Positions 32,619-33,626 of a stretch of DNA of 44,376 bases are shown one piece after another. The position numbers were made by a program, and so were the translations under genes. Positions within the stretch are counted from its first letter, which is position 1. Each line of letters opens with the position of its first letter. Under the pieces are notes generated by a model. The model searched no databases. It was not told the origin of the DNA and saw nothing but the letters and a program-made list of their open reading frames with translations. Source of the DNA: a virus (lineage: Duplodnaviria > Heunggongvirae > Uroviricota > Caudoviricetes); IMG/VR virus record IMGVR_UViG_2541047881_000004, positions 1 through 44,376 of that record; one strand, given 5' to 3'.

Positions 32619-32905
32619 GGCTTAATCTTCCCCTCCTTCAGCAGGATCGCCTGCGTCCTGATCACGCCTTCGAGGTGATAAAGTCTGGCGTCTTTGTTGT
32701 CGAGATTATGGGTGCGTCGGTCGATTTCATCGTGACACGCGCTACAAGCCCATGCGCCGATCAGGTCGTCAGGCTTCATTCCCGTTCCGCAAATTCCAGC
32801 CATCCGGTAATGTGCCAGAACTGTAGTTTCAGGATTGCCATTGCATACGCCGTAAATACGTACCTGGCATTCTCTGCCGCGTGCTTCTTTGCGTAGATTA
32901 GCCAT
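32615..32905 (-). CDS. Cys-rich nin-region protein of the YbcO family (DUF name recalled as DUF1364)
   Basis: 96 aa, MANLRKEARGRECQVRIYGVCNGNPETTVLAHYR...CSACHDEIDRRTH. Confidence 0.7.
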   Translation of the reverse strand: MANLRKEARGRECQVRIYGVCNGNPETTVLAHYRMAGICGTGMKPDDLIGAWACSACHDEIDRRTHNLDNKDARLYHLEGVIRTQAILLKEGKIKP

Positions 32906-32957
32906 TAAGCAGCCTCCCCTGTTACTTTCAGCATTCCGTTATCGAGCAGCTTTCTGG

Positions 32958-33626
32958 TCAGCCACTGTTGACCACGCCCGGTGATTTTTGTGGTGAACGA
33001 TTCTGTATTCCGTGATTTGTGTTGACCGCTGTTTCTTTCACTGTGAAATAGCCGCGATCCATATATTCCTGCATTGGCACATTGCGCCGGGAACCTGAAG
33101 CAATAAGGATTTTGTGATCGCGCATCCACGCAAACAGTTTGTTTGGACCAATTCCAACAACCTTTGCAAAGTTTCCAATCAAAATTCCGCTGGCCTCGCC
33201 AACGCGATCGGCAAACTCAACTTTAGGTGCGGCAATTGCGAGCTGGTTTTCCAGTTGCATTTTCTGCTCAGCAAGGTCAGCAGCAAGGCGCAACGCTTCT
33301 GGTAGCGTTTTTGGGATATTAACCGCAGCTTCTTCAAGCTCTCGCCAACGGTCAACAAGGCGAGCCGTGAATTCCGGCGACAACTGGGCAACGACAATAA
33401 TGCTGTCGCGCTTACCTTGTTCGCCTTCGAAGACGTAAGCCTCGACACTACGGCGCAGTCCTAAGTTATTGATTTTTTCGAAAACCTGCAATGCAGGAAG
33501 TTGAATAACTCCAGATTTAGCCAGGCGCTCTATTGATATTTTTACATTATCTGGACGACTTCCCACCAACTCAGCGATTTCAATGCTTGTCATTTTGATG
33601 GCATTGCCATTTATTAACTCATTCAT
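32958..33626 (-). CDS. Phage regulatory protein of the Rha / antirepressor family; its C-terminal domain appears to continue in another frame (possible frameshift)
   Basis: 222-aa ORF ends soon after ...EYMDRGYFTVKET, while the overlapping ORF 32905..33129 encodes ...TESFTTKITGRGQQWLTRKLLDNGMLKVTGEAA, which resembles the conserved C-terminal end of such proteins. Confidence 0.5.
   Translation of the reverse strand: MNELINGNAIKMTSIEIAELVGSRPDNVKISIERLAKSGVIQLPALQVFEKINNLGLRRSVEAYVFEGEQGKRDSIIVVAQLSPEFTARLVDRWRELEEAAVNIPKTLPEALRLAADLAEQKMQLENQLAIAAPKVEFADRVGEASGILIGNFAKVVGIGPNKLFAWMRDHKILIASGSRRNVPMQEYMDRGYFTVKETAVNTNHGIQNRSPQKSPGVVNSG

Follow-up and report, generated by a model that had tools for sequence, protein, structure and literature searches.

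The window is the whole stretch of DNA that was analysed, 44,376 nucleotides of a caudoviricete record in IMG/VR (IMGVR_UViG_2541047881_000004). Comparison with its relatives identifies the window as a mosaic lambdoid prophage in reverse orientation. Positions 15915-27788 are 97% identical to the lambda late genes, and positions ~29500-43700 share 95-98% identity with the early, nin and lysis regions of HK97. The nin region lies on the minus strand in the order ninB, an N6-adenine methyltransferase gene, ninE, ninX, ninF, roi, ybcO/DUF1364, rusA, ninH and Q. Pfam matches to NinF, NinX and YbcO support these gene assignments.

The locus at 32905-33626 (minus strand) is identified by its sequence as roi, the nin-region DNA-binding protein gene of HK022, HK97 and HK620. 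An 851-nt query around it has 91.9-93.8% nucleotide identity over the full gene length to HK97, HK022, HK620, HK140 and Kapi1, and HK75 is also among the matches annotated as roi or 'anti-repressor' (in the 92-94% range). The gene order ninF-roi-ybcO is identical in Kapi1, HK022, HK620, HK140 and HK97. Two properties mark the locus as an orthologue of roi: its nin position on the PR-transcribed strand, running from ninF to ybcO/gp66-rusA-ninH-Q, and its high full-length identity to named roi genes, which reaches 99.7% with the allele of E. coli BEN2908. It does not have the single continuous ORF of ~240 aa, since its frame encodes 222 aa and only 208 of them are native. The locus represents either a pseudogene of roi or a roi that was mis-sequenced, and not an intact member of the family. 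That it is roi with a one-nucleotide deletion, in the sequence as given, is close to certain.

The upstream gene, ninF (33619..33795, minus strand; Pfam NinF, 1.8e-12), has a stop codon that overlaps the roi ATG (ATGAATGA). Codons 1-208 of roi follow in the native frame at 33003..33626 (minus strand). They span the N-terminal winged-helix domain, the long linker helix and the KilAC/ANT domain up to ~80% of its length, and they have 100% amino acid identity to WP_021514115.1 of BEN2908. The deletion junction lies at 33001..33002 (minus strand), where one T is missing between the two bases (A on the plus strand). It is followed by an out-of-frame tail at 32958..33002 (minus strand) that translates into 14 aberrant codons (NRSPQKSPGVVNSG) and ends at a TGA (32958-32960). 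The orphaned 3' end of roi, codons 210-240 (SFTTKITGRGQQWLTRKLLDNGMLKVTGEAA) and the TAA at 32905-32907, is found in the native frame at 32905..33000 (minus strand). The downstream gene is a YbcO/DUF1364 gene similar to HK97 gp66 (32615..32905, minus strand; Pfam YbcO, 1.8e-44). Its ATG overlaps the native roi TAA in TAATG, as it does in intact phages, and its own GGAGG lies at 32913-32917, 7 nt upstream of the ATG.

A sequence-only reading of this DNA had proposed that a Rha/antirepressor-family gene of the nin region is broken by a single-base frameshift somewhere in 33000-33030. The ORF listing contains both frames on which this was based: a 222-aa ORF at 32958..33626 (minus strand), ending in EYMDRGYFTVKETAVNTNHGIQNRSPQKSPGVVNSG before its stop codon, and an overlapping open frame at 32905..33129 (minus strand), with 74 codons from a GTG and the ending SFTTKITGRGQQWLTRKLLDNGMLKVTGEAA. 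The continuing frame had been put at about 50 codons. This was an overestimate, as only its last 31 codons (210-240) are native roi. Alignments with intact homologues place the lesion inside the predicted interval, between 33002 and 33001. The MAFFT alignment with four intact phage roi genes contains exactly one frame-breaking difference, with intact relatives reading ACAGATATCG and the window ACAGAATCG (aligned as ACAGA-ATCG). The same gap, one T, separates the window from all four phage genes and from BEN2908. In blastn alignments, a single gap at 33002 appears against each of the six references that cover the site (L001-L005 and L007). Codon 209 of intact roi, ATA, is reduced to A-A, and an EcoRV site, GATATC, becomes GAATC (window 32999-33003); the sequence-only reading was right that no homopolymer lies at the junction.

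The nearest allele, that of BEN2908, is 723 nt long against 722 nt in the window and has one further difference, a synonymous base. When the T is re-inserted, the gene encodes a 240-aa protein that is 100% identical to WP_021514115.1, which places the frameshift far beyond chance. As given, the broken gene encodes 208 native residues and 14 out-of-frame residues before the TGA stop, and the last 32 native amino acids are lost. The remnant at 32905-33000 matches the four phage roi genes except for a few scattered substitutions and carries no further damage. Rather than ending at the stop of the 222-aa ORF, 107 of the best 120 homologues are 236-244 aa long and end in ITGRGQQWLTRKLLDNGMLKVTGEAA.

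The window gene shares with roi of HK022, HK97 and HK620 the nin position, the start and stop overlaps with its neighbours and 92-94% nucleotide identity, and its 3' half matches theirs except for scattered substitutions. It differs from them in the missing T of codon 209, which leaves an ORF of 222 aa against 240-241 aa, and in its helix-turn-helix segment (residues ~23-65), which is a different mosaic allele. That allele is intact in BEN2908 and in roughly 25 other complete genomes. In the E. coli prophage that best matches a 4.5-kb nin-region query (strain IR53017, NZ_CP064103.1; 21875-23099), ninF is followed by a 96-nt fragment of a Rha-family gene, and a complete roi begins ~400 nt later. 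Such a layout points to recombination or replacement at the roi 5' end, in line with the mosaic helix-turn-helix segment (alignment columns 75-205).

Of the family label given by the sequence-only reading, the antirepressor part stands. Pfam ANT/KilAC (PF03374) matches the 222-aa ORF over HMM positions 1-88 of 108 with 90.1 bits, well above its gathering threshold of 25.3 bits. The second frame matches the same model independently (HMM 67-106, E=0.001), in agreement with the view that it holds the conserved C-terminal end of an antirepressor domain. After repair, the score rises to 113.3 bits and the match extends over HMM 1-106 of 108 (residues 126-228). The Rha part of the label does not hold at the Pfam threshold: the matches to Phage_pRha (PF09669) score 21.1 and 20.9 bits against a gathering threshold of 29.9 bits (E about 5e-4). 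The match spans the whole HMM (1-91), which makes a distant relationship plausible.

A search of 1.84 billion cluster representatives returned 6342 relatives, and 95 diverse full-length sequences with 35-72% identity were aligned. All 95 extend at least to Roi position 221. Conservation in the alignment is among the highest at G219 (95%), T216 (81%) and K/R218 (73%), all of which fall in the part that is lost. A PDB sequence search returned no solved relative of Roi. AlphaFold2 with a shallow alignment gave an unusable model (pLDDT 42), and with the 95-sequence alignment the mean pLDDT was 91.8. In the latter model, an N-terminal winged-helix domain (residues 11-67) is followed by long helices (68-144) and a C-terminal domain composed of helices 150-157, 161-170 and 186-190, a beta-hairpin (194-203/206-215) and a last helix (217-229). 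The strand 206-215 and the helix 217-229 lie in the lost part. The truncated product would thus lack half of the beta-hairpin (its second strand), the conserved T-x-K/R-G motif (T216-x-K/R218-G219) and the terminal helix. From the model, the KilAC domain is predicted to be lost or strongly impaired and the N-terminal domain to be untouched. The product is most likely non-functional, or at best partly functional, because the C-terminal strand, the motif and the terminal helix are all missing.

Roi reportedly binds a site within its own gene, adjoining an IHF site. As cited in PMC3430580 and PMC4587872, HK022 Roi is a DNA-binding protein implicated in lytic growth, and the title of Clerget & Boccard 1996 (J Bacteriol 178:4077), also cited there, states that Roi inhibits lytic growth in IHF mutants. 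[quoted passage not shown] They include a subgroup with pRha and KilAC domains whose architecture is like that of Roi, and the KilAC domain of Listeria AriS inhibits the SOS response when over-expressed (PMC9043618). AriS and Roi differ in that they have no close sequence relationship, that SOS inhibition is known for the AriS KilAC domain, and that the KilAC domain in the window is truncated.

For Roi, the word 'antirepressor' is a family name only and not a shown activity. True antirepressors, such as P22 Ant and P1 Ant1, bind and inactivate the prophage repressor and are under Arc/Mnt or C4-type immI control. The window has a candidate module of this kind between tail genes K and L (11662-13269), where a P22-type Ant gene (P22_AR_N and P22_AR_C domains, 352 aa, minus strand) lies beside a divergent Arc-like repressor gene (12925-13269, plus strand). 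Long-tailed Stx phages (Stx2a_WGPS8, phage 2851, YYZ-2008) carry the same module at 95-96% identity. This Ant, and not roi, is the candidate for the true antirepressor of the window.

The overlap of the two frames could also be read as a programmed -1 ribosomal frameshift or as transcriptional slippage that restores full-length Roi, and a protein close to the native one would result from a -1 shift near 33001. This reading is extremely improbable. The overlap contains no in-frame X_XXY_YYZ heptamer, and its homopolymers reach A5 at most. The gene has a single such heptamer, at nt 312, but the -1 frame is closed there. In close relatives, Roi is overwhelmingly encoded by a single uninterrupted frame, and the two-frame layout is not conserved. 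The locus was therefore rejected as a programmed -1 frameshift gene.

The sequence-only reading had left two alternatives, a real pseudogene or a sequencing error, and both still hold. We favour a real and recent mutation, with a deletion in the DNA itself and not in the assembly, at a probability of roughly 0.6. Under this reading, roi belongs to a resident mosaic prophage, lambda-like in its late genes and HK97-like in its early region, and would have lost one T from codon 209 in a genuine and recent deletion. The frame would then shift, 14 wrong residues would be added, and translation would stop at the TGA 52 nt before the next gene. The truncated Roi would keep its winged-helix domain and linker helix and would lose the C-terminal hairpin strand, the motif and the last helix. 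We expect little effect on the downstream gene or on Q. Since the next gene brings a Shine-Dalgarno sequence of its own, the downstream nin genes and Q should stay expressed.

The competing explanation is that the missing T is a sequencing or assembly error, in which case the true prophage roi is intact, encodes 240 aa and is identical to the BEN2908 allele. This is a substantial possibility but a clearly less probable one. It gains most from the rarity of the allele. A 25-nt sequence of the deletion allele has no exact match in IMG/VR, in 185,579 GTDB species representatives or in JGI metagenomes, whereas the intact allele, as a positive control, has at least 120 matches in IMG/VR. The 226-nt 3' segment and the whole gene were also compared with 5426 complete E. 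coli genomes. None of the matches listed reaches 100% identity, and the best are one base longer than the corresponding window sequence and hence intact. A near-identical prophage was not found in these genomes either, the best match having 97% identity over 74% coverage. The absence of exact matches, together with the common intact allele, shows that the deletion is private to the window sequence. A singleton allele is what a one-off consensus error would look like, and it counts against a real mutation.

The exact identity of the repaired protein to a known one and the 96 undamaged nucleotides downstream are also in keeping with an error, though an undamaged 3' remnant is no less expected of a very recent mutation than of an artefact. 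Moreover, other 'frameshifts' of roi in databases resemble platform errors, such as the allele with two homopolymer deletions within 90 nt (L009). Real roi frameshifts are rare per gene, and the prior odds therefore do not weigh overwhelmingly against a rare assembly error. Only two other proteins among the best 120 of more than 7000 homologues have the frameshifted tail, which also counts against a real mutation.

The error explanation is opposed by the site itself, which is neither a homopolymer nor a simple repeat, the places where sequencing indel errors concentrate. The quality of the surrounding sequence also speaks against it. The window was aligned by blastn to lambda, HK97 and an E. 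coli prophage and every gap surveyed; in the ~34 kb that align (83-99% identity), no uncompensated 1-2 nt indel other than the roi deletion falls in coding sequence. The other 1-2 nt gaps are intergenic, are compensated within a few bases or lie at decaying alignment ends. With no other uncompensated coding indel in ~34 kb, the assembly is not indel-prone and the window is not ridden with errors. All of the window's 17 further GATATC sites are unaltered, and a base-calling error linked to a methylated motif therefore does not account for the loss. The loss of an EcoRV or methylation motif was likewise rejected as an explanation of the deletion: the intact sites include 13 of the 13 distinct ones shared with lambda, HK97 or the IR53017 prophage, and no restriction-avoidance or methylation-related pattern was found at GATATC sites within the window. 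Decay is visible elsewhere in the prophage too, in the IS2 at the left end and in a Pin-like invertase cut down to 92 aa. A real mutation is favoured because of these signs of decay, the non-homopolymer site and the lack of any other frame-breaking indel.

The independent disruption of roi in other prophages, which affects 4 of 112 IMG/VR copies, counts on the same side. IS629 insertions disrupt roi in O157 Stx2a phages and have been speculated to affect lytic induction (PMC4587872). In GCA_040438695.1 (ABTFVI010000034.1; L010 3100-3130), a Mu-like prophage with Mor, GemA and gp27-like genes is inserted in roi directly after ...ATACAG, and the resulting 208-aa protein ends at Q208 (P0023).

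Two proteins, P0013 and P0014, come from different nearby one-nucleotide deletions and carry the same aberrant tail as the window roi, ...SPGVVNSG. Single-base indels in short runs are present in several database copies of roi. The roi of GCA_033660215.1 (L009 2060-2250) has A5 reduced to A4 and GGGG to GGG, and that of Logan SRR6106816 (L012) has AAA reduced to AA. Two IMG/VR copies have A6 extended to A7 (L091) and one extra base in a C/A run (CCCCCAAAA vs CCCAAAAA; L077). Some of these indels give the aberrant tail ...SPGVVNSG, and all four look like slippage events or platform errors. Like the window gene, the copies behind P0013, P0014, P0023, L077 and L091 and the IS629-bearing genes of the Stx2a phages are independent inactivations in resident prophages by small indels or mobile elements. 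Each lesion differs from that of the window in position or kind. The single-base indels of L009, L012, L077 and L091 all affect runs of A or C; the deletion in the window does not.

These alleles raise the question of whether the 222-aa protein is a functional, possibly selected variant of Roi that keeps its DNA-binding domain and alters regulation in the lysogen. The N-terminal winged-helix domain and linker helix are intact in the AlphaFold2 model, several independent lesions within codons 203-215 give the same tail, and the Mu-like insertion is 1 nt from the deletion site of the window. This variant is nevertheless improbable. Most of the clustering near codon 209 can be put down to ascertainment: the search started from a query with the frameshifted tail and took in only the best 120 matches. 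In an independent sample, 4 of 112 IMG/VR roi copies are disrupted, and these disruptions lie elsewhere, either at gene positions 154 and 315 or as 5' truncations. The most conserved motif of the family sits in the lost segment, and every truncated allele is a singleton that has not spread. Because the search was biased towards matches that retain residues 1-208, the closeness of the Mu-like insertion to the deletion is probably a coincidence.

A broader form of this idea is that loss of the last ~30 Roi residues is recurrently selected in resident prophages and that the truncated regulator alters induction or lysogen fitness. It builds on three independent one-nucleotide deletions in codons 203-215 that share one tail and on the Mu-like insertion one base off, and it is more doubtful still than a selected variant in the window alone. 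A mutation hot spot near codon 209 was rejected on the disruptions at other positions among the 112 IMG/VR roi copies.

Whether mutated or misread, the locus is a known lambdoid-phage gene, and its single-base frameshift is of an ordinary kind. Rather than a new feature, it represents either an unremarkable prophage pseudogene or one isolated sequencing error. The appropriate annotation is roi with a frameshift (a pseudogene or a possible sequence error); an intact antirepressor or a pair of hypothetical ORFs would be the wrong label. If the favoured reading is correct and the deletion is real, the window provides one more case of roi inactivation in resident lambdoid prophages.

Several other features of the window lie outside the nin region. 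At the left end, part of an IS2 occupies bases 1-~930 (an IS3-family transposase with rve and HTH_21 domains), and its ORF at 1-906 runs off the window start. It is followed by an ORF at 881-1477 without a Pfam match and by the Pin/Hin-like invertase gene (1711-1989, minus strand), which is cut to 92 aa and matches the Resolvase HMM over positions 1-76 of 145. Together, these features of window 1-1989 are signs of a rearranged or decayed prophage end. Next to them is a side tail-fibre gene (3160-6030, minus strand; 956 aa, with phage_tail_N and Gp53-like_C domains). On the opposite strand are a second Gp53-like C-terminal cassette (2066-2530) and a tail-fibre assembly gene (2503-2943). The layout of 2066-6030 looks like the remnant of an invertible host-range segment, now beside a truncated invertase. 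Between the cos/Nu1 end and the lysis genes (window 27901-29364) are two more genes, one for a DUF1398 protein (27901-28326, plus strand) and one for a protein with KilA-N and ORF11CD3 domains (28867-29364, minus strand); a KilA-N protein is also annotated at this place in HK97.
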